A stretch of 64,000 bases of DNA from an uncultured Actinomycetota bacterium (GCA_963790415.1 CAWBOK010000005.1:75223-139222), one strand, 5' to 3'. Positions 1,202 to 45,725 are shown, numbered from the stretch's first letter. The notes: generated by a model from the sequence alone, not told the origin. Numbers and translations: made by a program.

Positions 1202-2287
1202 CTACCAGCCGGCTTCCTCGGTCACGGCCCCTTCGGCTACGTGACGTGCGACCAGGTCGCCCACGTCGCTGGTGCTCATGCCCATCTTGCCGGCTGCCAG
1301 CGACTCCATCTGGCCGATCGCGTGGATGATCCCGGCCTCCACCCAACGGGCGGCGTCCTTCTGGCCCAGATGGTCGAGCATCATCTGCAGCGAAGCGATG
1401 GCCGCGAGGGGGTTGATCACGTTCTGGCCGGCATACTTGGGCGCCGATCCCCCCATGGGCTCGAACATGGCCGTTCCCTCGGGGTTGATGTTGCCGCCCG
1501 CAGCGACGCCCAGGCCGCCCTGGATCATGGCCGCCAGGTCGGTGATGATGTCGCCGAACATGTTGTCGGTGACGATGACGTCGAACCACTCCGGGTTCTT
1601 GACGAACCACATGACGATGGCGTCGACGTGGGAGTAGTCGCGCGTGATGTTCGGGTAGTCGGCCTCGCCGACCTCGTTGAACGCCCGCCACCAGAGATCC
1701 CAGGCGTAGGTGAGCACGTTGGTCTTGCCACAGAGGGTCAGTTTGCCGTGACGGTCGGGCCGCGAGGCGTAGTCGTAGGCATACCGGATGCAGCGCTCGG
1801 CGCCCTTGCGGGTGTTCACGCTCTCCTGCACGGCGATCTCGTCCGGAGTGCCCTTCTTGAGGAAGCCCCCGGTGGAGCAATACAGCCCTTCCGTGTTCTC
1901 GCGCACCACCACGAAGTCGATGTCAGCCGGGCCCTTGTCCTTGATCGGCGTCTCCACACCGGGGAACAACTTGACCGGGCGCAGGTTGATGTAGAGGTCG
2001 AGGGCGAAGCGGGCCTTCAGCAGGATGCCCTGCTCGAGGATGCCCGGCTTGACGTCCGGGTGGCCGATCGCCCCCAGGAAGGTGGCATCGTAGCCGCGCA
2101 GCTCGTCGATGGCCGAGTCGGGAAGGGTCTCCCCCGTGCGCAGATAGCGTTCGGCCCCGAAATCGTAGCTGGTGAGGTCATAACTGAAGCCGGCGCGGGA
2201 GGCCGCCGCCTTCAGGACCTTGAGGCCCTCGTTCACCACTTCGGGACCGGTGCCGTCACCGGGTATCACAGCCAGGTCGTATCGCAT
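1202..2287 (-). CDS. leuB: 3-isopropylmalate dehydrogenase
   Basis: IPGDGTGPEV, NLRPVKL, RENTEGLY, TDNMFGDIITD, FEPMGGSAP; in an operon with ilvE and cimA. Confidence 0.93.
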   Translation of the reverse strand: MRYDLAVIPGDGTGPEVVNEGLKVLKAAASRAGFSYDLTSYDFGAERYLRTGETLPDSAIDELRGYDATFLGAIGHPDVKPGILEQGILLKARFALDLYINLRPVKLFPGVETPIKDKGPADIDFVVVRENTEGLYCSTGGFLKKGTPDEIAVQESVNTRKGAERCIRYAYDYASRPDRHGKLTLCGKTNVLTYAWDLWWRAFNEVGEADYPNITRDYSHVDAIVMWFVKNPEWFDVIVTDNMFGDIITDLAAMIQGGLGVAAGGNINPEGTAMFEPMGGSAPKYAGQNVINPLAAIASLQMMLDHLGQKDAARWVEAGIIHAIGQMESLAAGKMGMSTSDVGDLVARHVAEGAVTEEAGW

Positions 2288-2565
2288 CCTCACTCCTTGG
2301 GTCGGTTCGGCCCTATTGTAGCCCGGCCGGAGTCAGAGGGGGAAGCCGGATCCGCCTCTGGCGCTGTCCATCCGTGCCATGGCATCAACAATGAGGGGAG
2401 TAAGGTGACGCGTGCCGTGGTGGCGGCGTTGGTGATGGTCGCCCGCCCGGCGCAGTCGGTTGACGCCGCAGGCGAACTCGGACAGAAGCAGGAGCACGAG
2501 ACGAAGGTCCGACGCCTGGGGGGGACGCCGGACCCGAGTATGCCTGATCCTCCGTCAGTCGTGCG

Positions 2566-2943
2566 TCAGTCGCGGACCGGTTTCGCGACGATCAATCCAT
2601 ACAGGATGAAGAGATAGAGAACCATCATCATGATCGACCATATCGGATAGACCGGTATCCACATCATCTCGGAGATCGCGGCCAGGCCGACGAAGATGAC
2701 GCCGATGACGCGCCCCCATGTCTGCCCTGCAAGGACCGCCAAACCAGCGAACACGAGCAGGACGCCCACGATGAGCATCCACCAGGCTAGAGCACTGACA
2801 TCCACAAAGAAGTAGCCCGAAAAGCCCCGCACGACCCACTGGTCATTGAAGAGTCCGATGAAGCCGGTGATCGCCCTGAAGGCGCCGACCATTATCATGA
2901 GAAGCCCGCCGGCGGCGGCCCAACCGCTCCACCTGTCGTCCAT
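2566..2943 (-). CDS. Small 4-TM membrane protein (actinobacterial DUF7144-like)
   Basis: Hydrophobic ORF with the GW...G.W.R.V.V pattern and a YP.WS motif; AGGAGG RBS. Confidence 0.7.
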   Translation of the reverse strand: MDDRWSGWAAAGGLLMIMVGAFRAITGFIGLFNDQWVVRGFSGYFFVDVSALAWWMLIVGVLLVFAGLAVLAGQTWGRVIGVIFVGLAAISEMMWIPVYPIWSIMMMVLYLFILYGLIVAKPVRD

Positions 2944-3147
2944 CTCAACCTCCTAGTAACGTTTACGTGACTCGTCTGGCCCAAGCCGGCTCGCCATCTG
3001 CCGTTCGCGCCTCCTCCCTCCCCTGACGCGTGAGTCCGAGGTGATCGATCAGCCGGATCGTCGCCGTGGCGCGTGGCCGGCCATCGCGCCCTCAACGTCT
3101 CCTTAACCCGGGGGTTTCGACGCGAGGCTTCTTCCTCCTGCTCTTGC

Positions 3148-3696
3148 TCAGTCAGGAACCTGGAGCTGTGCGGCGATCCTTCTCACTGTGTTCGCGTTGC
3201 GCAGGGTGGCGGGCATGCCGACCGCCTTCTCGAGAAGCGCTCCGGAGAATCCGGATTGGGTGGTCCGCGTGCGGCACAACCAGTAGATCTCACGTCCGTG
3301 AACATGGAAATCGTTGACCGTGGACCGGAACGCCATGAGCGCGCGCTGCGCCTCGGCCTCGGGAGGGTCCGATAGGAATGCGATCGTCAGGGTGACACCA
3401 GGGGCGTCGAGTTCACCTGTCGGAAAGGGCCGACAATCCGCCACCGCCGCAAGCTGCGAGGGAGAGCGAACGAACGTGGCCACGTCGTATCCGAGCGCCT
3501 GCCGGAGATGGGTGGCGATCCGCGCTTCAAGTACGCGTGCGTCCTCCTTCGGGGCCCCGAAGATCACGTTGCCACTCGCGATGAAGGTCTCGGCGGATGC
3601 GAGCCCCAGCTCGGCGAAGAGCGTACGCAGGTGTTCCATCCGGACGGTGTGTCCGCCCACGTTGATGGCCCGTAGGAAAGCTATGTACGTACACAC
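3148..3696 (-). CDS. DUF1697 family protein
   Basis: YIAFLRAINVGGHTV.M and TFIASGNVIF signatures; TLRNANTV C-terminus. Confidence 0.85.
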   Translation of the reverse strand: MCTYIAFLRAINVGGHTVRMEHLRTLFAELGLASAETFIASGNVIFGAPKEDARVLEARIATHLRQALGYDVATFVRSPSQLAAVADCRPFPTGELDAPGVTLTIAFLSDPPEAEAQRALMAFRSTVNDFHVHGREIYWLCRTRTTQSGFSGALLEKAVGMPATLRNANTVRRIAAQLQVPD

Positions 3697-3742
3697 GAGA
3701 CGTGCGCGTGCTTCGCTTCGGCTACCTGCTCTCCCCTGTCGG

Positions 3743-4378
3743 TCACGAAGATGCGTCGTCCGGCATGCCGTCGAAGAATTCGACCACACCGGTCTCCAGC
3801 GAATACTCGGCGCCCACAACAAGGAACTCGTGCTCTTGGATCAACTGCTCGATCACCTCTGAGCCGTGTCGCAGATGGGCCGCGGAGGCGCGAATGTTGG
3901 CCCGTACGGCGTGCTGCACCAGAGCTCCGGGATCGTTCCTGAGTTCTGTCGCCAGCAGCGCTTCGACAGACGGACGCACCCGGTCGACGATGGACCGCAG
4001 ACCGCGTGATTGGTGCTCCCTGGGCCGCCTCAGCTCTTCGATCGTCGCCAGGATCGCGCCGCACTGGGAGTGACCCAGAACCACCACGAGCCGCGTGCCG
4101 AACTGCTCCACCGCAAACTCGACGCTGCCCACCTGAGAGGGGGCGACGATGTTTCCGGCAACACGGATGACGAACAAATCGCCCAGACCTTGATCGAAGA
4201 CGATCTCCACGGGCACCCGAGAGTCGGAGCATCCGAGGATTACGGCGAACGGCTCCTGGCCTGCCGCCAACTCGCCGCGGCGCGTTTGACTCGCGAAAGA
4301 GTCGCGGTCGCGAGTGTCCAGTGCGAAGCGGCGGTTGCCCTCTTGCAGGCGTTCGAGGGCTTTCCGTGGTGAGATCAT
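3743..4378 (-). CDS. Beta-class carbonic anhydrase
   Basis: LQEGNRRF, GCSDSRVP and GHSQCGA zinc-ligand motifs. Confidence 0.93.
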   Translation of the reverse strand: MISPRKALERLQEGNRRFALDTRDRDSFASQTRRGELAAGQEPFAVILGCSDSRVPVEIVFDQGLGDLFVIRVAGNIVAPSQVGSVEFAVEQFGTRLVVVLGHSQCGAILATIEELRRPREHQSRGLRSIVDRVRPSVEALLATELRNDPGALVQHAVRANIRASAAHLRHGSEVIEQLIQEHEFLVVGAEYSLETGVVEFFDGMPDDASS

Positions 4379-4476
4379 CGACGTCCCTCCGAGACGAGCG
4401 CGGTTGCCTATGTGCCGAGTGTCAGCCCCTCGTCGACCAACTTCAATACCCTGCCGTATCGAAGAGCAGCGACTCG

Positions 4477-4662
4477 TTACCGCCACGACACTGCGATGAT
4501 CAAGGCGGCGGACAGCCGACGCGCCGCCTGATCAAGGGCGGCTTTGGGCCACTCTACCACTTCGCTCTCGTCGCTGATGCACGCGCCATCCACGCCTTCC
4601 ATCCCAGCCGAAGAGGCGAGATAGACCGCTGACCGAGATGCTTGCGCCGCGCCTACGGTCAT
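4477..4662 (-). pseudogene. C-terminal remnant of a short-chain dehydrogenase
   Basis: AVYLASSAGMEGVDG...AALDQAARRL resembles the end of retinol-dehydrogenase-type SDRs; no Rossmann N-terminus. Confidence 0.45.
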
Positions 4663-4694
4663 CCGCCCACAGGAGCGCCACAGTTCGAGTCGCG

Positions 4695-5324
4695 CTATTC
4701 TTCGCGCGACCCCGATTGCTCGGCGAATGCGGCCGCCGCCAGCGTCGCGGCGTAGGTGCGCACACCAAGCGGCCACGACGCGGTGTGCTCCTCGAAGCGC
4801 TGCCGGTCGCAGGCGAACAACGCGCGAGTCGCTTCCTCGAAGCCGGACTCGTTGCCCGCGATGGCCGACATGAACCTGAAGGTCACCTCCTGCGAACGCC
4901 GCACGCGGTCACTGCCTTCATGTGCCCGCTGAGCCTGCTGAACGAGTTTGCGGAGCGCGACCGACGCGCCGCCCGGCTGAGCGTTGAGCCACTCCCAGTG
5001 TCGTGGCAGCAGGGTGACCTCACGGCCGACCACGCCCAGTTTGGGTCGTCCGGGCGCACGTGGCGCCGGCGCCGATTCGAGGCCTACTTCATCCGCCACG
5101 GCCTCGAGGATATCGGCGGGCAGACGCTGCAGTACGTCCTGCAGGGTGCCCCGCAAGTCCATCTCTACGGGCTCGGCCGTGGCGTCATCGAAAACCAGCA
5201 GGGTGCGCGTATCGCCTGAGTCGATGAGTGTCTTGCACGCCCGAGCGACTTCCCTCGGGGTTCCCGAGGCGATGTAATGGACACCGGCGAAGGCAGTGCA
5301 TGATTCGGATCGTCTGACGTTCAC
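4695..5324 (-). CDS. DUF2239 family protein
   Basis: LVFDDATAEPVEMDLRG and GRPKLGVVGREVTLLPRHWEWLNAQPGGASVALRKLV signatures; GTG start with GAGGAG RBS. Confidence 0.88.
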   Translation of the reverse strand: MNVRRSESCTAFAGVHYIASGTPREVARACKTLIDSGDTRTLLVFDDATAEPVEMDLRGTLQDVLQRLPADILEAVADEVGLESAPAPRAPGRPKLGVVGREVTLLPRHWEWLNAQPGGASVALRKLVQQAQRAHEGSDRVRRSQEVTFRFMSAIAGNESGFEEATRALFACDRQRFEEHTASWPLGVRTYAATLAAAAFAEQSGSREE

Positions 5325-5358
5325 TCGGCTCTCCTCAGCTTGACACCTGGACGGCATC

Positions 5359-5404
5359 ATTCTACCCTGGTAAAACTAGCGCGTCAATACTACCCGGGTA
5401 AAAC
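5359..5404 (-). promoter_or_regulatory. Sigma70 promoter TTGACG-N17-TAGAAT with two TACCC(T/G)GGTAAAAC operator copies
   Basis: -35 at 5382-5387, -10 at 5359-5364; repeats at 5363-5376 and 5391-5404, the latter containing the palindrome TACCCGGGTA. Confidence 0.75.
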
Positions 5405-5418
5405 AAGCCGCCAGGCGC

Positions 5419-6258
5419 TTACGCCGGAACCAAGTTGAAGACCGCAACCTCCGGCCTCGCGTCGAATCGCAGGTGAACGAGATACCCCACCCCGCGACTG
5501 ATGTACATGGTCCGCCCGCCGCTCAGCAAGAACTCGCCGGACGTGTAGCGTCGATTCTCCACATTCAGCACCGGGGGCGGCAGGAACGGCACGCGGCACT
5601 GGCCTCCGTGCGTGTGTCCGGACAGGATCCAGCCCGTGAAACGCTCCCAACCCGGTAGGTCTACCGTGTCCGGGTTGTGGCTCAGGGCGAGCATGGGAGC
5701 AGCCGGGTCGTTGCCGGCGAGTGCCTGGGACGGTTGGAACCGTTCCGCCCAGAGGTCATCCATCCCGACGATCTCGAGCCCAGAAACGTCGATTCGCTCG
5801 TTCCTGAGTACGCGAACCCCCAGGGCAGTCAGAGTCTCCGCCAAACGGTCGGCATTGCCACCATCCGCCCAGCCGCGTCCGTAGTCATGGTTGCCCAACA
5901 CCGCGACGGTTGCCAGCCGGCCGTGCGGCAGATCAGCGTAGACCGCGCCTGCATGCGCGATGACATCCGGGTGGTAGCTGGTCAGGTCGCCGGTCAAGCA
6001 CACTATGTCGGGGTCGAGTGCGGCGACGCGGCGGAATGTGTCGAGGACGTAGTCGTCGGAGACCCGGGGGCCGACATGTACGTCCGAGAGTTGCACCAAA
6101 GTGGCCCCCGCAAGGGACGCGGGAAGTCCCAAGATAGGCATTTCCCGGCGGACGACCTCCAGCCAGTGGGGTTCCACCTGCCAGGCGTACATGCCCACCG
6201 TCGCAGTCGTAGCGGTGAGAGCGAGCGAGGCCTTCAGGAACTCACGGCGGGTCAGCAT
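5419..6258 (-). CDS. Metallophosphoesterase (YkuE-like) with Tat-like N-terminus
   Basis: LTRREFLK start; QLSDVH, TGD, GNHD, SHNPD and SGHTHGGQ motifs. Confidence 0.92.
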   Translation of the reverse strand: MLTRREFLKASLALTATTATVGMYAWQVEPHWLEVVRREMPILGLPASLAGATLVQLSDVHVGPRVSDDYVLDTFRRVAALDPDIVCLTGDLTSYHPDVIAHAGAVYADLPHGRLATVAVLGNHDYGRGWADGGNADRLAETLTALGVRVLRNERIDVSGLEIVGMDDLWAERFQPSQALAGNDPAAPMLALSHNPDTVDLPGWERFTGWILSGHTHGGQCRVPFLPPPVLNVENRRYTSGEFLLSGGRTMYISRGVGYLVHLRFDARPEVAVFNLVPA

Positions 6259-7055
6259 GCGCTTTCGTTTCTCCGCTGCATGCCGTTGCCGGCCTTCCTC
6301 AGATGGTAATGCAGCCTGACGCGCCCCGTCGGCTCGGCATCCACCGACACAAGCTTCAGCCGCGCGGGCCACTCCTCCGGCCCGAGGTCCGGCGAGCGGA
6401 ACAGAGTCGGCGTCTCCGAACCACCGATGAGCGCCGGCAGCAAGACTAGGCTGAGTTCATCCACAAGTCCCGCACGCAGCAGGGCGCCGTTGAGGCGGCT
6501 TCCCGCCGTGCAGACCACCCGCTCGACGCCAAGCACCGCCGTCAACCTGCGCATGGCGTCGACCAGATCCACGTGACGGCGACCGGCCATAAGGTACGGG
6601 ATCTCCCGACGTCTCAAGAACGCGAGGTACTCGGATGGCGAGGCGTCGCAGACGAGGTGGAGCGTGTGCCACCCCTCCCAGCCCGGGAACTCCTTCATCC
6701 CGGATCGAAGCCGTCCGCGACCGTCCACCACCGCGAACCAACCGCGATGCCCCGGTCTGCGGATCACCTCCTCCGGCAGGTAGTCTTCGTGCAGTTCCCT
6801 GAGCGGATACTCCGACGGGGGAAGAGGCTGAAGCTCCTCTCCCTCTCTGACGAACGATCCGCTGCCTTCGAGCAGCACGTGCGGGTTGTAGAGGGCTATC
6901 AGATCGCGGACGCTACCTTCGAGACTCGTGTCGGACGCCCAGATCGCCAGCCATCTCTCGTCGCCGACGTCGTCGAACCCGGTTCGATCGGGACCCAGCG
7001 ACACCCGCCCGTCGACCGAAGCGACGGTGTGGATGATGACATGTGGTCTCTTCAC
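6252..7055 (-). CDS. RibD C-terminal / dihydrofolate reductase family protein
   Basis: ASVDGRV; GSRLNGALLRAGLVDELSLVLLPALIGG. Confidence 0.85.
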   Translation of the reverse strand: MKRPHVIIHTVASVDGRVSLGPDRTGFDDVGDERWLAIWASDTSLEGSVRDLIALYNPHVLLEGSGSFVREGEELQPLPPSEYPLRELHEDYLPEEVIRRPGHRGWFAVVDGRGRLRSGMKEFPGWEGWHTLHLVCDASPSEYLAFLRRREIPYLMAGRRHVDLVDAMRRLTAVLGVERVVCTAGSRLNGALLRAGLVDELSLVLLPALIGGSETPTLFRSPDLGPEEWPARLKLVSVDAEPTGRVRLHYHLRKAGNGMQRRNESAC

Positions 7056-7130
7056 TCCGCACCTCCGATATACAGGCCGCGGTTCATGCCACCGGGCGCG
7101 ACCATCGTCGCACAGAGGGGCACGCAGCCA

Positions 7131-7288
7131 CTACTGCACATGCGTGGGATCGGCCAGGCGAAGAGTCTGATCTGCCGATCGGTCTTCACGAAGCCGGTGC
7201 GCCGATACACCGTCTGAGCGACGGCGTTCTCGTGACCTACCTCCACGGTCATGGCGCGTATCCCGAGTTGGGCGCAGAACAGGTCAAC
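7131..7288 (-). pseudogene. C-terminal remnant of a GNAT acetyltransferase
   Basis: LGIRAMTVEVGHENAVAQTVYRRTGF motif B; begins abruptly at the stop of the upstream gene. Confidence 0.65.
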
Positions 7289-7754
7289 CTACGCCCCTGC
7301 GCATCGCCGCGCCCATCGCACCCAGCAGCAGAACCGTGGTCGCCACGGTGACGAGCCACAGCTGCCGGTTCAAGCGGTACATGGGCAGCCCCATGAAGAG
7401 GATCGCGCCGAAGAAGAGACCCAGATACGGCACGAGGACCTCGTACCGTATGGGGACACGGAACTCGACCGGCCAGGCATAGTCCACCACGACCATGAGG
7501 CCTACGAACGCGAGGAACAGGATCGGACCGACCCAGTTCAGCCGGCCGGCGCCTGCGCGGACGAACGCGACAAGGGCCATGGTCGACGGGACCGCGAGAG
7601 CGATTATCGCATAGCCGAGGCGTTGATTGACCGCCATGCTCCCGGTGGGTAGCCGAGAAAGGAATCCCGCGGCCTGCAGCACATTGACGGCGTTCACCAC
7701 CCCCCACACGGTGAGCGCCGCCCACCACGGCTCGAACCCCGACTGGTTCTGCAT
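7284..7754 (-). CDS. Hypothetical integral membrane protein
   Basis: 156 aa with 4-5 hydrophobic segments. Confidence 0.7.
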   Translation of the reverse strand: MQNQSGFEPWWAALTVWGVVNAVNVLQAAGFLSRLPTGSMAVNQRLGYAIIALAVPSTMALVAFVRAGAGRLNWVGPILFLAFVGLMVVVDYAWPVEFRVPIRYEVLVPYLGLFFGAILFMGLPMYRLNRQLWLVTVATTVLLLGAMGAAMRRGVG

Positions 7755-7763
7755 ACGTAGTGC

Positions 7764-7867
7764 TCAGTCCGGCTCGTCGAAGAAGTCGTTGTCGACCCGC
7801 GAGATACTCAAGACCCTCGTGACGCTCACGCCCACGCCATGAAGGACTCGAAACTCGGCACGGCCAT
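7764..7867 (-). pseudogene. mrr: Internally deleted Mrr-type restriction endonuclease gene (104 bp)
   Basis: MAVPSFESFM (Mrr N-terminus) joined out of frame to HGVGVSVTRVLSISRVDNDFFDEPD* (Mrr C-terminus) at a shared CATG. Confidence 0.65.
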
Positions 7868-7920
7868 GTGCGGATCCTCTCATTCGACCTGATCGCGAAT
7901 CCAGTCTATCGGAGGGAACG

Positions 7921-8958
7921 TCAACAGCGCCAGTCCAGGCTTCCGAGACCGGTGAGTCGGCCCGCGGCCTTGAGCACGACCAGGACGTCGGCGGTAACCC
8001 ATTCGTTCAGCCGCCCGCGCCCAACAGGGCCCCAGTCCACCAGGTCGCGGCCGCCGGCCGCAGCGGACGACGTCCGGTAGAAGCGCTCTTGGGCCGCCCA
8101 GCCGCCGTCGGGCAGACGCTTCGACTCCAGCAGGTCAAGTGCGTCCGCGCACCTCGGGTCGCCGACGAGACCCGCCTCGGTCATCACCTTCAGCGCAAAC
8201 AGGACGTCGTACCGCCAGTAGCAGGGGTAGTGCAGCCGCGTGAACTGAGGATTCATCGGGCCGCCATCCGCCAATCGGCGATAGAGACGTCTCTGGAGGA
8301 AGACCTCCGCCGCCCGGCGCGACGCGGCACGGGAGTCGGGATTCCCCGTCTCCGCCGCGTACCGGGCGAGGGCCCGCAGAGGGATGAGGCTCTCCCAGAA
8401 CGACGAGCGAACGGCTTCCGGGCGGCGGTCGCAGTTCCAGCCGCCGTCATCCCACTGCCACCTCAGCAGGCAGTCGGCCAGCCGCTCGGTGCGCTCGTCG
8501 GCGAAGCCCAGCGCCAACGCGGCGAACAGGGCGTTGCCCTGCTGCGAGGCGCAGCGCCGCGCCCGTCCGTCCATGATCGGCACGCCACGATCTCGCCGGG
8601 GCGGCGGCGCTTCCTCGCACACCCACTCCAGAAGACCCTCGGGCCGAAGCCACCAGTCCACCACCTGGTCGACAGCCGGTCGCAGCGAACTGTCGCCGGG
8701 CGGGTAGCCGATGTCCGCCAGACTGGCCAGGACCCAGTGTGCGCCGATCCACTTCTTATAGACCTGCCCTACAGGCGCGATACGGCCGTCGGGGCTGCGG
8801 TTCGACAGCAGCAGTGCAACGCGAGGTGATTTCTTGATCGTGCGACGAAGGGCCGCGATCGAAGGCGACTCAGCGTCTTCACCCAGGACCCCTACCCGGA
8901 TCTTGTACCTAACGGACGGTTCGTCCGATTCAAGAAGCCTGGGGATCATCTCATCCAT
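7921..8958 (-). CDS. Prenyltransferase/squalene-oxidase-repeat-like (alpha/alpha barrel) protein
   Basis: QWDDGGWNCD, FTRLHYPCYWRYDVL and KRLPDGGW repeats. Confidence 0.7.
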   Translation of the reverse strand: MDEMIPRLLESDEPSVRYKIRVGVLGEDAESPSIAALRRTIKKSPRVALLLSNRSPDGRIAPVGQVYKKWIGAHWVLASLADIGYPPGDSSLRPAVDQVVDWWLRPEGLLEWVCEEAPPPRRDRGVPIMDGRARRCASQQGNALFAALALGFADERTERLADCLLRWQWDDGGWNCDRRPEAVRSSFWESLIPLRALARYAAETGNPDSRAASRRAAEVFLQRRLYRRLADGGPMNPQFTRLHYPCYWRYDVLFALKVMTEAGLVGDPRCADALDLLESKRLPDGGWAAQERFYRTSSAAAGGRDLVDWGPVGRGRLNEWVTADVLVVLKAAGRLTGLGSLDWRC

Positions 8959-9148
8959 GGTGCCTCAGCTATCGCCGACGCCCGGCCCTCGGTTGCGGGG
9001 CAGCGCCATGTGCCCTGGTTCGATTGTCACGATCACCTCCCCGTGATCTCATCCTAGCACCAGAGACTCTCGCTGGATGCGCTCGTTCGGTTCGCGCATG
9101 CGACATGCGGATGCGGCAACAGCGCCGAACTGCTATGGTCGCGGCAAG

Positions 9149-10417
9149 ATGTCACCCCGTCTACGTGGACTTCTCGGACTCCTGCTCCTCACCCTGGCCT
9201 TCGCGGGACTGGCCTGGATCGGGGGGCTGCGCGACCACACCCACGCATACCTGGCCCTCTACGGGGTCGCGGCCGGGGGCTACCTGCTGGCCCTCTGGGG
9301 CCAGGCCGCACTCCCCTTCCCCGCGGTCATGGTCGTAGCGCTCCTGCTGCGGGCCCTCATGTTTCCCAGCCAACCCAGTCTGTCCGACGACTACCACCGC
9401 TACCTGTGGGACGGCCGCGTGCAGCAGGCGGGCATCAACCCTTACCGCTACGCTCCGGTCGACCCCGCCCTCGACGCCGTCTCCTATCCCGACCGGGCGC
9501 TCATCAACCACCCCGATGTGCAGACCATCTACCCGCCGCTGAGCGAGATGCTGTTTCTCGGACTGTCGGCGATGGGGCTCGGCTCCGTTGCCGGCCTCAA
9601 GCTGGTGCTCGGCGCGTTCGATCTGGCTACCGCCGCTGTCATCGCCTGCGTCGCAGGCAAGACGCGGCGTCGGACGGCTCTCACCATGTATCTCCTGCAC
9701 CCTCTCGTCGTCCAGGAAATCTGGGGGAGCGCCCACATCGACGCCGTCTACGTGTTCCTGATGCTGACAGCGCTGCTCCTGATCATGCGGCATCGCGATC
9801 TGTTGGCGGGCGTTGCTCTGGGAGCCGGGGCGGCCTTCAAACTCGTTCCTCTGTTCCTGGTGATCCCGGCGGTGCTTGGTGGGCGTGTGCGCCCAGGGCG
9901 GTTCCTCCTGGGCTTGACGGCCGCATTCCTGCTGCCCTACCTCCCCTACGCGGCAGGGGGCGCTTTCCTGGGCTCGCTCAGCCGGACCGACGCTACCCCA
10001 GAGTTCGACAGCTCGATCTTCTGGTTGCTCGACGCGGTGCTGCCCTACGCGACGGCCCGGTACATCTGCGTTGGGCTGTACATCGCTGGGGCCGTCTGGA
10101 TCGCGCGGGCCATCCGGGGACGCGAGCACACGGCGAAGGCCTTTGCCTGGACCCTCACCTGGGCGACTCTCCTGCTCCCCGTGGTGCACCCCTGGTACTG
10201 GCTGGGCCCCCTGGCGCTGGGCGCAGCGGCCGGTCTCCACCTCCCGGCGTTCTTGGGGCTTGCGGCACCCGCCTCGTACGTTGCCTACGCCCAGATGCCC
10301 TTCAGCCAACGAACGTGGGCCCGCGTCATCGCCTACCTGCCGCTCGCGGGCGCCTGGAGCGATCTGAAGGCGCTGACCAGGGAACTGACGAAGACAAAGC
10401 CGAAGGCGGCGGCATAG
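9149..10417 (+). CDS. GT-C membrane glycosyltransferase (GT87/DUF2029-like)
   Basis: LSDDYHRYLWDGRVQQAGINPYRYAP, TIYPPL, SAHIDA and VHPWY motifs; polytopic. Confidence 0.85.
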   Translation: MSPRLRGLLGLLLLTLAFAGLAWIGGLRDHTHAYLALYGVAAGGYLLALWGQAALPFPAVMVVALLLRALMFPSQPSLSDDYHRYLWDGRVQQAGINPYRYAPVDPALDAVSYPDRALINHPDVQTIYPPLSEMLFLGLSAMGLGSVAGLKLVLGAFDLATAAVIACVAGKTRRRTALTMYLLHPLVVQEIWGSAHIDAVYVFLMLTALLLIMRHRDLLAGVALGAGAAFKLVPLFLVIPAVLGGRVRPGRFLLGLTAAFLLPYLPYAAGGAFLGSLSRTDATPEFDSSIFWLLDAVLPYATARYICVGLYIAGAVWIARAIRGREHTAKAFAWTLTWATLLLPVVHPWYWLGPLALGAAAGLHLPAFLGLAAPASYVAYAQMPFSQRTWARVIAYLPLAGAWSDLKALTRELTKTKPKAAA

Positions 10418-11817
10418 AGGGTGAGAAAGGGGATCGCCGTCAACCTTCCCGCCTGGAGTGCACTCACGGCGGTGTATCCGGCGAGGACGATCACCCCGAA
10501 CTCGAGCAGTGGCGTCAGCCCCACGACGGCGCGATAGTGCGCTTTTGCCGGGCCGTCCCCCCGCTTGGGCGTACGCACGAACCCCGAGCTGATCCGAAGC
10601 AACGCCTCGATGACGGCCCGAGTGCAGACGACGGCGACGCCGGTGCCCAGCATGATCAGCACCGGCATCAGAAGGATCCGTCGCCGCCAGTCGGGGTAAA
10701 GGTCCTTCTGGCCGGTCACGACCAGGAGGGGCGGCCCCACCGCAAAAGCAATGCCCACCACCAGCCAGCTGAGTGCGGAGGGGAAGTCGCGCACGAGGAA
10801 AGCCGCCGAGACCAACAGGCCCAACATGAACGGGTGGACGAAATAGCCGAGGAGATGCACCACCGCCTCGGTCTTCACCGATATCGGGAGGGGCGAGCGC
10901 AGCACGCGCGGCAGCAGCTTGATGGCCGTCTGCACCGAGCCCTTCGCCCAACGGAACTGCTGACCCTTCAAGGCGTTCATGTCGGCCGGCACCTCCCCCG
11001 GCACGGTCACCGTGGTATCGAACACGCCTCTCCACCCGACGATCTGAGCCCGGTAGCTCAGGTCCAGGTCCTCGGTCAAGGTATCGCCAGACCAGCCACC
11101 GGCCGCCTCGATGCAGGCCCGCCGCCAGATGCCGCCGGCGCCGTTGAAGTTGAACAGCAGGCCGGACCCGAACCGGGATTGCTGCTCCACCACGAAGTGG
11201 GCATCGATAGCCATCGCCTGCAGGCGCGTGAGCAGTGAGTCGTCCCGGTTGAGGTGACTCCAGCGGGCCTGCACGAAACCGACGGAGGGGTCGGAGAAAT
11301 GGCCCACCGTGCGGCGAAGGAAGTCTCGTGGGGGCACGAAGTCGGCGTCGAACACCGCGTAGAGGTCGGAGCGACTCAGCGTCATCCCGAGCGCCAGTGC
11401 GGCCGCTTTGAACCCGGTTCGCTCGCCTCGCCGCACGTGTTGCACCACCAGACCATCGGCGCGCTGATACACCACGGCGTCGCCGGCTCCTGCCGAGATC
11501 GTCTCGCTGTTACTCAGCCGGGAGAGCGACTCGGCCACGAGCGCGGATGTGCCGTCGTTGGAATCGTCGAGCACCTGCAGGACCAGCCGCTCGGACGGGT
11601 AGTCGAACTCCAGGGCACGCTCCAAGAGGCGCTCAACGACATTCAGCTCGTTGTAGAGGGGAAGCTGGACGGTCACCGATGGTCCGTCGGCCGGCGAAGA
11701 GGAGTGCCGCAGTGTCCCCACGCGGCGGTAGCGCCAGGTGAGGTAGAGGCTGTTCACTCCGTACACGGCCAGCCCGAGCGACGAAACGATGTAGATAGAC
11801 AACCAGACCCTATCCAC
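10333..11817 (-). CDS. GT2 processive glycosyltransferase (cellulose synthase-like)
   Basis: VTVQLPLYNE, LDDS, GFKAAAL, FDADF, TEDLD and QQFRWAKG (QxxRW) motifs. Confidence 0.92.
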   Translation of the reverse strand: MDRVWLSIYIVSSLGLAVYGVNSLYLTWRYRRVGTLRHSSSPADGPSVTVQLPLYNELNVVERLLERALEFDYPSERLVLQVLDDSNDGTSALVAESLSRLSNSETISAGAGDAVVYQRADGLVVQHVRRGERTGFKAAALALGMTLSRSDLYAVFDADFVPPRDFLRRTVGHFSDPSVGFVQARWSHLNRDDSLLTRLQAMAIDAHFVVEQQSRFGSGLLFNFNGAGGIWRRACIEAAGGWSGDTLTEDLDLSYRAQIVGWRGVFDTTVTVPGEVPADMNALKGQQFRWAKGSVQTAIKLLPRVLRSPLPISVKTEAVVHLLGYFVHPFMLGLLVSAAFLVRDFPSALSWLVVGIAFAVGPPLLVVTGQKDLYPDWRRRILLMPVLIMLGTGVAVVCTRAVIEALLRISSGFVRTPKRGDGPAKAHYRAVVGLTPLLEFGVIVLAGYTAVSALQAGRLTAIPFLTLYAAAFGFVFVSSLVSAFRSLQAPASGR

Positions 11818-11864
11818 GTGCCGAAGCCTCCTCGCACATCATCTCGGCGCCAGGTGATCTTCCG

Positions 11865-38182: not shown

Positions 38183-38294
38183 CGCTCCACCTCCCGAGAG
38201 ACTGCCGCAAGCATACTACGCTCGGATCAGAAACATCGTTCCCCGCTCGCCTTTCATTCTGGCCGATGCACTCTGGCCGATACACGATGGACCT

Positions 38295-38354
38295 GTCGAA
38301 CGCCCGTCACCAGCGGTGCCGCACGGCGCCGTCGGCCGCATGCCGTTGTTAGGC
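38295..38354 (-). mobile_element. attC site (60 bp) directly after hsdR
   Basis: GCCTAAC AACGGCATGCGGCCGACGGCGCCGTGCGGCACCGCTGGTGACGGGC GTTCGAC; 7 bp from the hsdR stop. Confidence 0.75.
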
Positions 38355-38361
38355 GCCCCCT

Positions 38362-41497
<3,136 letters not shown>

Positions 41498-41501
<4 letters not shown>

Positions 41502-41746
41502 CCGATCACCTTCCAGTGTCCGCCTTTGGCGGAGCCGACCCGTACAAGCAGGCCTGAATCACGAAGTATCCGAATCGCGCGGTGGATCGCGCTCTCGGAC
41601 TTGTCCATGAGGGCTGCCAGTTGTGACACAGACAGATCTGGCTGGTCCTTGAGGAGCCGCAGGATCTCCGTCGGGGCTTTCCCTAGCGTTTCCCTGGCGT
41701 TTCCCTGGCGTTCCCCCGGCGTCCTCCCTGGCAATGTGAACGTCAT
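41498..41746 (-). CDS. Small winged-HTH protein (82 aa), possibly the remnant of a longer ATP-binding/Fic regulator
   Basis: [54 protein letters not shown]; GAGGGGG RBS; GTGA overlap with hsdR. Confidence 0.7.
41678..41721. repeat. Four tandem 11-bp units TT(T/C)CCC(T/C)(A/G)GCG
   Basis: TTTCCCTAGCG TTTCCCTGGCG TTTCCCTGGCG TTCCCCCGGCG. Confidence 0.85.
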
Positions 41747-42301
41747 GACCACCGCCCCCTCGCGCGACGACACCGTCGGCGAGCAAAGGAAGTCATCGAT
41801 GCGCCGCCTGAACCAAGCCATGCGGCGAGCCGATGGCGTGAGTTGGTACAGTGTCATCGCGACATTGCAACGCGATTGGTGTCGCGAAAGAGGCCACAGC
41901 GACGATTGGCGGCGCACGACGAGGGCACTACAGTATCCTTGGGACTGGGGATTCTCGGTCGGCAATTGGCCTCGGCGGAGTCGTCGGGGTCTTTTGCTTT
42001 TCACGGGAACACCTTGAGACCGCGCCCGGCCCAGTCGCTGTTCCTGTCCGTGCAGCATCTTGCAGCATCTTGCCCGGATCATCGCCATGACCGGTCCTTT
42101 CGCCGGACAGCGAAGAACCCCGGCCCCCGCGCCTGCAGCCGCCGCTCGTTCGGCGTGTGGCCGGGTGAGAGGTCCTCGCGAAGAGTGCGCGGCGCCCAGA
42201 TTCGGAACTGGGTGCCACGCCTGGAGTTGACGCGCTGACCGACACCGGATTCGGCGAAGGTGGTCATGGCCCGTTGTGATAACTCACCCGCCCAGAGTCA
42301 C

Positions 42302-42916
42302 TCACGCAGTCGCCTCGATGATCGCTTCGCGCAACTTCACGAAGCTGCGCGATCCGCTGCTACTGGGGTCGAGATGGGCACCCATCGTGCGCGCTGCCTC
42401 CACCTTGCGCAAGCCGGTTCTGAAGTAGCCGTGCCGTCGAAGGACGCGCTCGAACGCTTCCCAGGAGCCGCGGATCGCGTCAGGGTCGCGATAGCCCGCT
42501 CGGTTCGGGATGGTGCGGGGCACCCTCGGGTAGGCAGCGCGCACCGCCTCCCAATCGCCAAAGTACCAGCCCTCAAGCTCCTCGATCGCGATACGGTTGA
42601 CTAGTTTCCACGCTGCCCCGCCTGCGACCGATCGGGTGCGCAACCCGGCTGCTGCAGCCATGCATTCGAGTTGCCGCTTCAGAGCCCGGCAATCGTCGTC
42701 ATCGCGATCCACGACAACCACGATGCGCCAGTCGGCCGGCAACCACCGTGCATAGCCGTGCAGGCGATCCTGCAGCTTGTGCAACAGGTCGGCCTTGCCC
42801 TGGAACGCGTGAACCTCGAACGTGCGATCACAGGGCAATAGACGGGGCAGCAGGGCGCGCAGGAAGGCCTCCATCGAGGGCTCCTCTACCAGCAATTCCA
42901 GATGCCGCGCTCTCAT
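42302..42916 (-). CDS. DUF4276 family (TOPRIM-like) protein
   Basis: [21 protein letters not shown] and [11 protein letters not shown]; ATGA overlap with the ATPase stop. Confidence 0.8.
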
Positions 42917-44145
42917 CGTCCGCGGCTTTCGAGCGGGCGGGTTGGCGCGCCATCGTTGACGAGCGGATCGCCCACGCCAAGCTGGCCCTCCATCCACAGA
43001 TGGCCCAGCAATGCGCCGTGCTGCACAAACTCGGGTACGCCCGGCAAGTCCGCAGCGCGTCGCGTCTGCGTGTAGCCCTGGTCGTCGCGCCAGAGTACGC
43101 GCACCTCACCTGGCTTCAACGCGTTCAGAAAGAACGGCGAATGTGTGGTCACCAGCAGCTGCGTACGCTCAGTGGAGGCGCGGCACTCCTCCGCGAGTTC
43201 AGGCAGCAAACGTGGGTGAAGGAAGTTCTCCGGCTCTTCGATCCCGATGAACGGCGGAGGCGCTGGGTCATACAGCAACACCAGGTAGGCCAACATCTTC
43301 AGCGTGCCATCCGACGCGAACCGCGCCAACACCGGATGGCTGAAAGGCGCGTCCTTGATCTGAAGGAGCAAGCGACCATCGGGCATGGTCTCCGCCAGCA
43401 CTCGCTCGATGCGTGGCACACGCTGGCGCAGTACCTCAAAGATGCGCTCAAGTTGGTCGGGGTGCTGTTCCGCCAGATACTGGATCACGTTGGCAAGGTT
43501 GTCGCCGGTCTTGGTCAAACGCTCGTCCGGCCCTGCCTCGGGCTGCCCACGCGCGCTGTCGGCCGACAGGTACGACACATACCAGCCCGTGATGAAATCG
43601 CGCAGGGCCGCAACGCGGGGATGCTCGGCGAATTGTCCCAGTGCATTGACCGCCAGAAGATCAGGAGACTTCAGTGCGACCTCCACACGACGATCCTGTT
43701 CGTCGGGCAACTCGCCGCTGACCGCGCGGCCCTGGCCTTCGTGGTATTCAAGAAAGCGGAACGGCTGTCCGTGGCTGCCCCGCTTCCAGCGCAACCATTC
43801 CTCGACCACCACCGGGCCTCCGGCGCGCTCATCAACAGCCAAGTGGTATGTGATGAGCGGATAACCAGGCTCCCGGTACTTGATCTCAATCAACACGGGC
43901 CCGTCTCCACCCCGAGTCTTGAGCTCCTTGGCCCGGCCGCGCCTGTCCCACGCGCGGCGCAGTCCGAGCTCGAAACATTCGGCAAGGAACGCGAACACGT
44001 CGAACACGGTCGACTTGCCGCTTCCATTGGGGCCCAGCAGCACTGTTAGGGGGGTCAGATCCTTGAACTCCACATCGCACAGCGCGCGGAAGTTCTTGAC
44101 CCTCAGATACTCAATGCGCGGTGGTGTAAGAGATCGAGGGGACAT
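42913..44145 (-). CDS. ABC-type (AAA_21/AAA_15) ATPase
   Basis: Walker [10 protein letters not shown], signature-like SDGT, Walker B IEEPEN, H-loop TTHSP. Confidence 0.92.
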
Positions 44146-44156
44146 CTATTCCTCCG

Positions 44157-45725
44157 TCAGTGGATCGCCTGTGATTCTCCAGCGTCCTTCACCCGCAGCT
44201 CGCCAGATATGAGCCTGGGCAGCAGTGTGTCGCGCGACGCGACGAGGCTACGTGATTCGTGGATGCCCGCGATGATCCGCTCAATCGCCGGATGCAACCA
44301 CTTCCCGAACGACTCCGCTACTGTTATTGGCGGTAGCGCGACCTCGTAGCGCGCCATGTCCGACCAGCTCGTCCGGGGCATCTTCGTACCCGTCGAGCCG
44401 GCGTTCGTATAATCGACGAACTCGTCGCTCGACACGAGACCCAGCACAAAAGACAACCAGTGTGGGGCTTGCGGCGCCATAACCACTATGTCCGTAGAGC
44501 AGACACCATCGACCGGCGCGACACCTACCTTGTGGAAGTACGGCCGAAGCTTTCCGAAAAGAATCTCATGCTTCTTGAATTCGAACTTGTTGCTTTCGAG
44601 TCCTTCGGCGACGCCCCAGTCAGACAGAGCGATGCAACGCTTGGGCATGTGCCCGAGAGCGATATAGGGCACGCTTGGCTCGATATCGTCGGGCTGCACA
44701 CTCCGGCGCGGATGCTCGGCGACGTTACCAAGCGTCCCCACCTCCCACCCCTCCGGAATCTCGCCGAGTTCGGAGTCGACGAAGCGAGCGGGGAAAAGGT
44801 CGGCGAGGATCTTGGGAAGACCGGAATCGCGGCCTTCGGCCTTGGCGCGAACGGGGTCGAAGTCCACGAACCATGACTTGAAGAGCGCCTGCGCCATCGC
44901 CTCCAGCGTCTCGTTCATCCGCCTGTTCAATTCGATCTTGTCATCCAGCGTGCCGAGGATGTGGGCGATGGCGCGTTGTTGACGCTCGGGGAGGCTCGGC
45001 CACCAGAGGCCGGCGAGCTGATTCGCAGAGACGTTCGGGAACGTCGAACCTGTCGCCTGAAGCAGTAGACCAGGCAGTCCGTACTCAACAACAGCATGCA
45101 CGAGCGGCTGAAGTTCCGGGCTCTCCTTGTGGCGGATCGCTGCAACACCTCGCCCGATCGCGTACTCGCGATCCGCCCAGTTCATGCGGCCCGTGGTCGA
45201 GCCACGTACACAAAAGAGCACATCACCCGATCGTGCCCGCTTTCGCGCCGCCGTCGTCCATTGAACAGCCGACGGATGATGCGGCCCGTAGTCGGTCGGG
45301 CCGTTCAACAACGGGAGGCCAGCACCCTCTGTGTTGCAGGTCTCTCCCGGCGGAGACTGCCCCATGATGATGTCGGTGACGTCGCCTAGGCGCGTCTTAC
45401 CCCCCTCGCCCCCTTTCCCCCGATCCCGCTCGAACAGGACCTTCCCTTCCCGCGCGATGTGATCAAGCAGGGCCTGGTCCTCGATGGCGTGGTGCGGGAG
45501 CAGGTCCACCCGTTGAGGGATAGTCAGCTCCTCCATCCTCGCGGTCAGTCGTGCCTGGTCAGTCAGCGTCAGGGAGTCTCCGTACAGGCAGATGTCCACG
45601 TCGGATGCGGGGGTAAAGGTCCCCATGGCGCGCGAGCCGAAGAGGACGGCCCGGTCCACGCCGGGATGGGCGCGCAGGACGTCCAGGATGGCCTGGCGAT
45701 GGCGGTCCTTCAGGCCGTCGTTCAC
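44157..45725 (-). CDS. hsdS: Minimal nucleotidyltransferase (MNT) fused to type I specificity subunit S
   Basis: N-terminal about 100 aa LFGSRAMG...SDVD (GS-X10-DxD), then LGDV, GSTF, PSLPERQQRAIAHILGTLDDKIELN and RDTLLPRLISGEL HsdS regions. Confidence 0.88.
   Translation of the reverse strand: MNDGLKDRHRQAILDVLRAHPGVDRAVLFGSRAMGTFTPASDVDICLYGDSLTLTDQARLTARMEELTIPQRVDLLPHHAIEDQALLDHIAREGKVLFERDRGKGGEGGKTRLGDVTDIIMGQSPPGETCNTEGAGLPLLNGPTDYGPHHPSAVQWTTAARKRARSGDVLFCVRGSTTGRMNWADREYAIGRGVAAIRHKESPELQPLVHAVVEYGLPGLLLQATGSTFPNVSANQLAGLWWPSLPERQQRAIAHILGTLDDKIELNRRMNETLEAMAQALFKSWFVDFDPVRAKAEGRDSGLPKILADLFPARFVDSELGEIPEGWEVGTLGNVAEHPRRSVQPDDIEPSVPYIALGHMPKRCIALSDWGVAEGLESNKFEFKKHEILFGKLRPYFHKVGVAPVDGVCSTDIVVMAPQAPHWLSFVLGLVSSDEFVDYTNAGSTGTKMPRTSWSDMARYEVALPPITVAESFGKWLHPAIERIIAGIHESRSLVASRDTLLPRLISGELRVKDAGESQAIH

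Follow-up and report, generated by a model that had tools for sequence, protein, structure and literature searches.

A Coupled ABC ATPase-DUF4276 Gene Pair between hsdS and hsdR of an Uncultured Actinomycetota Bacterium, a Copy of the Candidate Anti-Phage Module HEC-01

A stretch of 64,000 nucleotides from an uncultured Actinomycetota bacterium (GCA_963790415.1 CAWBOK010000005.1:75223-139222; hereafter the window, with positions counted from its first letter) carries, on its minus strand, two overlapping genes for an ATP-binding cassette (ABC) ATPase and a small DUF4276 protein. The pair is placed between hsdS (45725-44157) and hsdR (41501-38362) of a type I restriction-modification (R-M) operon. 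Because both proteins match PADLOC models over their full length, the pair is, as judged from sequence, an ordinary copy of HEC-01, a candidate anti-phage module that is already known and catalogued. An initial annotation, made from the DNA sequence alone, had described a translationally coupled ABC ATPase/DUF4276 pair at 42302-44145 with a full set of ABC motifs, a partner carrying VEE and an acidic DRDDDD motif, and a prrC-like position between hsdS and hsdR. These features were all found: both open reading frames (ORFs) lie on the minus strand at those positions and are joined by an ATGA overlap, the motifs are present and conserved in homologues, and the position is that of prrC, with about 800 nt of gene relics and a small winged-helix (wHTH) gene before hsdR.

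The gene pair and its operon

The upstream gene, HEC-01A (44145-42913, minus strand), encodes a 410-residue ATPase of the SMC/Rad50/OLD type, an assignment drawn from Pfam, PADLOC, AlphaFold2 (AF2) and Foldseek. Its Walker A motif reads GPNGSGKS (K44), the Q-loop region carries Q201, a signature-like SDGT starts at S278, Walker B is IGIEEPE (E303/E304) followed by NFLHP, and the H-loop is TTHSP (H335); across 50 homologues drawn from many phyla, each of these motifs is either invariant or conserved to at least 90%. Pfam returns AAA_21 (4.9e-31) and AAA_15 (1.7e-15), and the PADLOC HEC-01A model (PDLC04182) is matched at 2.7e-162, with residues 9-393 on model positions 2-404 of 406. Compared with HEC-01A, the match to the generic AriA model of the AAA_21 type is far weaker (1.9e-30), and the AbiLi model of PADLOC is matched at 9.6e-23. 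The AF2 model, with a pLDDT (predicted local distance difference test) score of 83, has top structural matches spanning E values from 1e-11 to 6e-13, which include PtuA of Septu and retron effector complexes (from 6e-13 up), Thermus OLD (6p74, 1e-11), and the heads of SMC and Rad50. The Thermus protein, Ts OLD, is also matched by sequence (1.8e-8) in a search of solved structures. No AriA chain occurs among the top 50 Foldseek matches, nor is AriA listed in the sequence search of solved structures at E values up to 0.01.

The downstream gene, HEC-01B (42916-42302, minus strand), encodes a 204-residue DUF4276 protein, recognised by Pfam (PF14103, 9.8e-30), PADLOC and AF2 as a Toprim-like putative nuclease. 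Its start is the ATG at 42916-42914, corresponding to M28 of a longer ORF, and this codon overlaps the ATPase stop (42915-42913) as ATGA (42913-42916). Homologues of 205 residues cover 100% of the 204-residue form. Two other gene models were rejected: the 231-residue long ORF (42302-42997), since the form starting at 42916 fits all homologues, and a 190-residue database gene call (P0003), whose start at M15 is too late and loses the catalytic glutamate. The PADLOC HEC-01B model (PDLC04202) is matched at 6.6e-82, with residues 32-228 of the long ORF on model positions 2-199 of 204. The protein carries LLVEEPS (E11) and an acidic motif with D70 and D72, these three residues being conserved in at least 90% of 63 diverse DUF4276 members; E113, E115, W117 and D146 are conserved as well.

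Both HEC-01 models are thus matched by adjacent, co-oriented genes. HEC-01 (Hma-embedded candidate 01, PADLOC-DB v2) was described as an ABC ATPase plus a TOPRIM-like protein inside Hma systems (Payne et al., bioRxiv 10.1101/2024.01.29.577857), in work that also noted how often type I R-M, BREX and DISARM operons hold embedded defence genes (bioRxiv 10.1101/2024.01.29.577857). The architecture is the same in the window, with an ABC ATPase followed by its Toprim-like partner within a larger defence operon, although the surrounding system here is type I R-M, with the pair between hsdS and hsdR, instead of Hma. The suggestion that DUF4276 replaces DUF4435 in such a pair, offered in the initial annotation, had therefore already been catalogued under this name.

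The region from 49016 to 38362 forms a single co-oriented minus-strand operon, hsdM through hsdR. It begins with hsdM (49016-47415), and three further genes precede the pair. A Fic protein (47342-46167; PADLOC SoFic, 7e-119) lies between hsdM and a gene for a HEPN-type NTase_sub_bind protein (46138-45722), which overlaps, through GTGA, an ORF in which an MNT (Polbeta nucleotidyltransferase) domain is fused to the HsdS N-terminus (45725-44157; Pfam Polbeta 1.6e-15 and Methylase_S 2.7e-12 in one ORF, PADLOC Specificity_I 6.9e-86). The ATPase ATG follows the hsdS stop by 11 nt, and a GGAGG ribosome-binding site (44151-44155), read from the sequence, stands 5 nt before it. A scan of 41300-44500 found no sigma-70-like promoter; given this and the closeness of the ATPase start to the hsdS stop, the pair is probably read from the hsd transcript.

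About 800 nt separate the DUF4276 gene from hsdR, made up of about 550 nt of gene relics and the wHTH gene, and Rfam, promoter and terminator scans of this gap found nothing. Relatives of the pair, taken as the best 80 of 422 stretches encoding one in species-representative genomes (loci numbered with the prefix L), help to read it. The first approximately 11 codons of hsdR occur twice on the minus strand, at 42235-42267 and at 41469-41501, 766 nt apart; the upstream copy lies 36 nt past the DUF4276 stop and is identical at 27 of 33 nt to the hsdR start of locus L029. The relics (42079-42297), recognised by repeat search, alignment, Pfam and tblastx, comprise this copy (42267-42235) and then a RhuM-family fragment (Pfam PF13310, Virulence_RhuM, 1.5e-7, model positions 32-69 of 252) that resembles, by tblastx, a RhuM/Fic gene in the hsdS-hsdR gap of L077. 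The Macro, AAA_14, SLFN or Fic genes found in relatives were considered as the source of the gap and ruled out in favour of the RhuM fragment. The wHTH gene (41746-41498, 82 residues; Pfam HTH_5 1.4e-7 and MarR_2; NCBIfam ArsR/SmtB-like, 6e-6) has a stop that overlaps the GTG start of hsdR as GTGA, and it may either regulate hsdR or form the end of a cassette otherwise lost. In L049 and L066, the nearest relatives, hsdR comes directly after DUF4276. It seems that a RhuM-type cassette was inserted at the hsdR 5' end, duplicating that end, and then decayed.

The hsdR gene itself (41501-38362) is spread over three frames, with Pfam HSDR_N, SWI2_SNF2 and T1RH-like_C on three separate ORFs and tblastn matches to the L029 HsdR in frames -3, -1 and -2. 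Relative to that intact protein, which is 86-89% identical, two +1 insertions split the gene, one near 40920 and the other near 39732, both outside homopolymers. The frameshifts are either a recent pseudogene or an assembly error, and real decay is plausible in view of the RhuM-type cassette that seems to have been inserted and to have decayed beside it. Past hsdR, 38270-38365 (minus strand) was folded as an attC candidate and, in a single crude test, was no more stable than shuffled sequence (z 0.79).

The Toprim-like partner and its relatives

The DUF4276 protein is supported as a Toprim-like putative nuclease, by its predicted structure and conserved residues. The AF2 model (pLDDT 97.3) has strands at residues 5-10, 32-37, 63-70 and 105-110 with helices between them and a helical C-terminal part, and this four-strand parallel alpha/beta core, with a conserved glutamate after strand 1 and DxD after strand 3, follows the Toprim pattern. 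A structural comparison of the protein with AriB and the OLD TOPRIM, proposed in the initial annotation as a check, did not bring out the expected likeness: Foldseek against the PDB gave a best E value of 0.02, and its top 50 matches held no Toprim, AriB or OLD structure, the library being older than the cryo-electron microscopy of MAD4. For this reason, the assignment rests on topology, conserved residues, a search of BFVD and the literature. BFVD gave a RloB-like phage protein as its best full-length match (TM 0.50 at probability 1.0) and, ranked next, a DnaG TOPRIM domain at probability 0.85. DUF4276 has been placed in the Toprim superfamily (PMC12065111), and MAD4 was seen to have a Toprim-like fold by cryo-electron microscopy (PMC13662399). 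Searching solved structures with a profile of the DUF4276 alignment gave nothing meaningful, and the RloB Pfam family does not match the protein.

The closest characterised relative is MAD3-MAD4 of the Pseudomonas aeruginosa system MADS, which likewise pairs a separate ABC ATPase with a Toprim-like protein of the DUF4276 type, in a methylation-linked defence locus. The two proteins form a 2:2 heterotetramer, in which MAD3 hydrolyses ATP only within the complex and without which MAD4 is insoluble (PMC13662399). The complex binds double-stranded but not single-stranded DNA, it nicks and linearises pUC19 with Mg2+, and toxicity appears only when both proteins are expressed (PMC13662399). An acidic pocket of MAD4 (D12, D55, D81, E83, E119, E121) holds Mg2+ at the canonical Toprim site (PMC13662399), and the order of acidic residues is analogous in the window protein, with E11, D70/D72 and E113/E115 against D12, D81/E83 and E119/E121. 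The analogy is nonetheless a distant one, because neither the mad4 model of PADLOC nor any model of NCBIfam recognises the DUF4276 protein, and because the ATPase stays below the MAD3 cut-off (NCBIfam NF047739, 5.8e-33, 114.7 bits against a cut-off of 420; PADLOC mad3, 8.8e-23). The surroundings differ as well, since the window operon has standard hsdM, hsdS and hsdR, with only weak matches to mad1 and mad5 and no other mad genes.

The wider class to which the pair was assigned in the initial annotation, that of ATPase-Toprim sensor-nuclease systems such as OLD, PARIS and AbiL, is supported by the fold matches of the ATPase, the topology of the DUF4276 protein and the literature. In the OLD family (P2 Old, Ts OLD 6P74, and GajA of Gabija), an ABC ATPase is likewise coupled to a Toprim metal-dependent nuclease; in OLD and GajA, however, both domains are fused in one polypeptide, whereas the window encodes them in separate overlapping genes, and its Toprim part is too diverged for a Foldseek match to the solved OLD Toprim domains. 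AbiL consists of AbiLi, the model of which matches the window ATPase, and the RloB-like AbiLii, and the DUF4276 model finds its best full-length structural counterpart in a RloB-like phage protein. Like the pair, PrrC is encoded between hsdS and hsdR of a type I R-M operon and has an ATPase sensor of the ABC type, but it is a single polypeptide with an N-terminal ABC ATPase, a C-terminal anticodon nuclease and no Toprim, where the window has two proteins, one of them Toprim-like.

A closer kinship with PARIS, also put forward in the initial annotation as a PARIS-like pair with DUF4276 in place of DUF4435, holds at the level of the class and is not supported at that of the family. PARIS (AriA + AriB; PMC11464382) is likewise a two-gene, coupled system of an ABC ATPase (AAA_15/21) and a Toprim-class nuclease, is tied to anti-restriction sensing, and has been grouped in the same paper with MADS3-4 and AbiL as ABC-ATPase/TOPRIM systems (PMC11464382). 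AriB, however, is a DUF4435 protein and the window partner is not: a Pfam search for DUF4435 (PF14491) in 63 DUF4276 members, at E values up to 10, found none. A comparator came from L084 (92-2289), a locus of a same-phylum genome in which a 442-residue ABC ATPase gene overlaps that of a 290-residue DUF4435 protein in an AriA/AriB-like pair, with 11 diverse DUF4435 relatives entering the profile. Against this AriB-like profile, hhalign gave the DUF4276 family a probability of 0.5% (E 0.11) over only 36 columns, around VEExS/VEGxSD. Membership in PARIS was ruled out on these two results, and the window ATPase, judging by its top 50 structural matches, appears closer to PtuA and OLD than to AriA; as judged by homology, the pair shares the broad class with PARIS and is not a member of it.

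The same comparisons bear on the likely substrate. It is conceivable, if improbable, that the pair is an RNA effector of the AriB kind, in which the ATPase would release or activate the Toprim protein, which would then cut tRNA or other RNA and halt translation. Toprim nucleases can be RNases, and AriB cuts tRNA, according to two published accounts (PMC11464382; PMC13662399); RNase M5, too, has been cited as Toprim (PMC12065111), and the hhalign alignment sets the catalytic VEExS beside the VEGxSD of AriB-like proteins. That alignment is insignificant, however, at 0.5% probability, and MAD3-MAD4, the only characterised DUF4276 module, binds double-stranded and not single-stranded DNA and nicks plasmid DNA. 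PARIS cuts tRNA and the nearest DUF4276 relative cuts DNA. A DNA-cutting mechanism is preferred here because MAD3-MAD4 nicks double-stranded DNA and the acidic residues follow the same order.

A mechanism along these lines can be sketched. Translational coupling would allow HEC-01A and HEC-01B to be made in fixed proportion, and the two proteins most likely come together in a single ATPase-nuclease complex. If this resembles MAD3-MAD4, it would be a 2:2 heterotetramer whose ATPase dimer serves as scaffold and stabiliser of the nuclease. Such a complex would be expected to bind double-stranded DNA and to nick or cut it with Mg2+ in the manner of a split OLD-type nuclease, and an infection cue may then cause it to stop the phage, the cell or both.

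Distribution, transfer and the link to restriction-modification

The DUF4276 family is large, with 4500 proteins at E values of 0.001 or below in a word-indexed search; clusters at 50% identity number 1377. The 80 loci represent Pseudomonadota, Acidobacteriota, Latescibacterota, Binatota, Gemmatimonadota, Spirochaetota, Chloroflexota, Planctomycetota, Cyanobacteriota, Armatimonadota and Actinomycetota, together with one archaeon, a Methanosarcina. Identity to the window proteins across these loci is 57-74% for DUF4276 and 62-92% for the ATPase. In all 80, the ATPase gene lies directly upstream of the DUF4276 gene, and the junction falls between -4 and +3 nt in 69 of them (-4 nt in 34, -1 nt in 9, and 0 to +3 nt in 26).

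The distribution of the pair points to horizontal transfer, as read from sequence comparison, because it is patchy among relatives, its closest ATPases come from Pseudomonadota, and its spread over phyla is wide. The window genome (a 3.6-Mb, 10-contig, 89%-complete assembly) holds a single copy, a DUF4276 match was present in only one of 40 related genomes, and on the ATPase tree the window protein is closest to Pseudomonadota copies, with up to 90% identity. The Methanosarcina locus (L076, 8796-10606) encodes a pair with 80% (ATPase) and 59% (DUF4276) identity to bacterial copies; since it nests among Betaproteobacteria on the tree, this copy points to transfer between domains.

Such mobility might suggest that the pair mainly promotes its own spread or retention, through addiction or break-induced insertion, with defence as a secondary matter. 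The very strong conservation among distant phyla and in one archaeon, combined with patchy presence, insertion between housekeeping genes, and the duplicated hsdR 5' end beside the pair in the window could all be taken in this sense. That duplication, however, flanks the RhuM/wHTH segment and not the HEC-01 pair, the 80 loci show no integrase, transposase or terminal repeats accompanying the pair, and one HEC-01 representative gave phage protection, all of which leaves a selfish role highly improbable.

The link to type I R-M was followed through the neighbouring genes of the 80 loci, obtained from ORF calls filtered by GC content at third codon positions (GC3) and subsequent clustering. Genes of the hsd type adjoin the pair in 23 of the 80, and in 13 of the 53 informative loci, that is, about a quarter of those with at least 3 kb on both sides of the pair; within such operons, the place taken is usually again the one from hsdS to hsdR. 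In 15 loci, the pair is flanked on its own strand by hsdS or hsdM upstream and by hsdR downstream. Mapped on the ATPase tree, the R-M-embedded state requires 12 changes, of which well-supported branches force at least four, so that capture by R-M operons is recurrent. Embedded relatives carry further genes between hsdS and hsdR, of the Macro, AAA_14/DUF4143, Fic, Zeta-toxin or SLFN/HATPase kinds. Elsewhere the pair keeps quite different company: 40 of the 53 informative loci are without hsd neighbours, and at other loci it adjoins a tRNA synthetase, oxidoreductases or GmrSD. In four Latescibacterota (L001, L003, L006 and L008, around 1700-11850), it lies between nrdA and nrdB, the genes for the large and small subunits of class I ribonucleotide reductase. 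The hsdS-hsdR gap is therefore read here as a hotspot for defence cassettes, and a functional tie of the pair to R-M is possible and not required.

The anti-anti-restriction role proposed in the initial annotation would make the pair a guard of restriction, either monitoring the adjacent type I R-M complex as PrrC does or directly sensing anti-restriction proteins as PARIS does, and firing its nuclease when restriction is blocked. The position is the same as that of prrC, the hsd linkage just described (including the 15 loci with flanking genes on both sides) was gained several times, and the ABC ATPases of PARIS and PrrC can sense anti-restriction factors; in addition, that HEC-01 on its own failed in E. 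coli without R-M would fit the need for an R-M partner. The wider evidence makes this role unlikely, however. Most loci are without hsd genes within 3-10 kb, some of them lying between housekeeping genes, and HEC-01 was first found inside Hma systems and not in type I R-M. Both proteins of the pair are 60-90% identical across phyla, whereas their HsdS/HsdM partners vary widely, and there is no PARIS-specific homology. Finally, hsdR in the window is apparently broken, and if that break is real, then the pair may have little restriction remaining to guard here.

A narrower form of the idea applies to the R-M-embedded copies alone. These would dock on, or read the state of, HsdM/S(R) as a PrrC-like guard and nick DNA when anti-restriction proteins block restriction, with free-standing copies sensing another conserved cue. 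This form is quite unlikely. If true, it would provide a second layer of defence that acts by cutting DNA, in contrast to PrrC and PARIS, which cut tRNA.

The HEC-01 module as a probable autonomous defence system

Taken as a whole, the pair is probably an autonomous, OLD-like, DNA-cutting defence module, a copy of HEC-01 that is widespread and horizontally mobile. Autonomy is favoured because hsd genes are absent from 40 of the 53 informative loci and because some copies lie between housekeeping genes; the pair would thus be self-sufficient, and the hsdS-hsdR gap a favoured landing site instead of a required partner. With respect to phage defence, a HEC-01 representative from a cold seep shielded E. 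coli B from one or more of the phages T4, T5 and T7 (bioRxiv 10.1101/2024.09.26.614923).

Several observations weigh against this account. Mutants of the Toprim site in MAD3-MAD4 reduce DNA cleavage only modestly, and ATP hydrolysis is unlinked to cleavage in that complex (PMC13662399). The window proteins themselves stand apart from MADS, the ATPase at 115 bits being far below the MAD3 equivalog cut-off and thus outside that equivalog, and the DUF4276 protein having the mad4, NCBIfam and Foldseek results given above. The HEC-01 representative tested by Payne et al. gave no protection from any of their phages (bioRxiv 10.1101/2024.01.29.577857). Finally, a quarter of the informative loci in a PrrC-like position is far above chance, so that a functional tie to type I R-M may exist.

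As an annotation, the pair in the window is of little weight, because PADLOC would label it HEC-01 automatically. The family as such is among the most widespread of the ABC-ATPase/Toprim modules and is extremely conserved across phyla, and the published phage tests disagree, making it worth bench study. Its repeated capture in the hsdS-hsdR gap, beside Fic, RhuM, Macro, Zeta and SLFN cassettes, supports the view of this gap as a hotspot for defence cassettes. Likewise, the natural pairs of HEC-01 copies with and without R-M are suited to testing whether embedded modules guard restriction.

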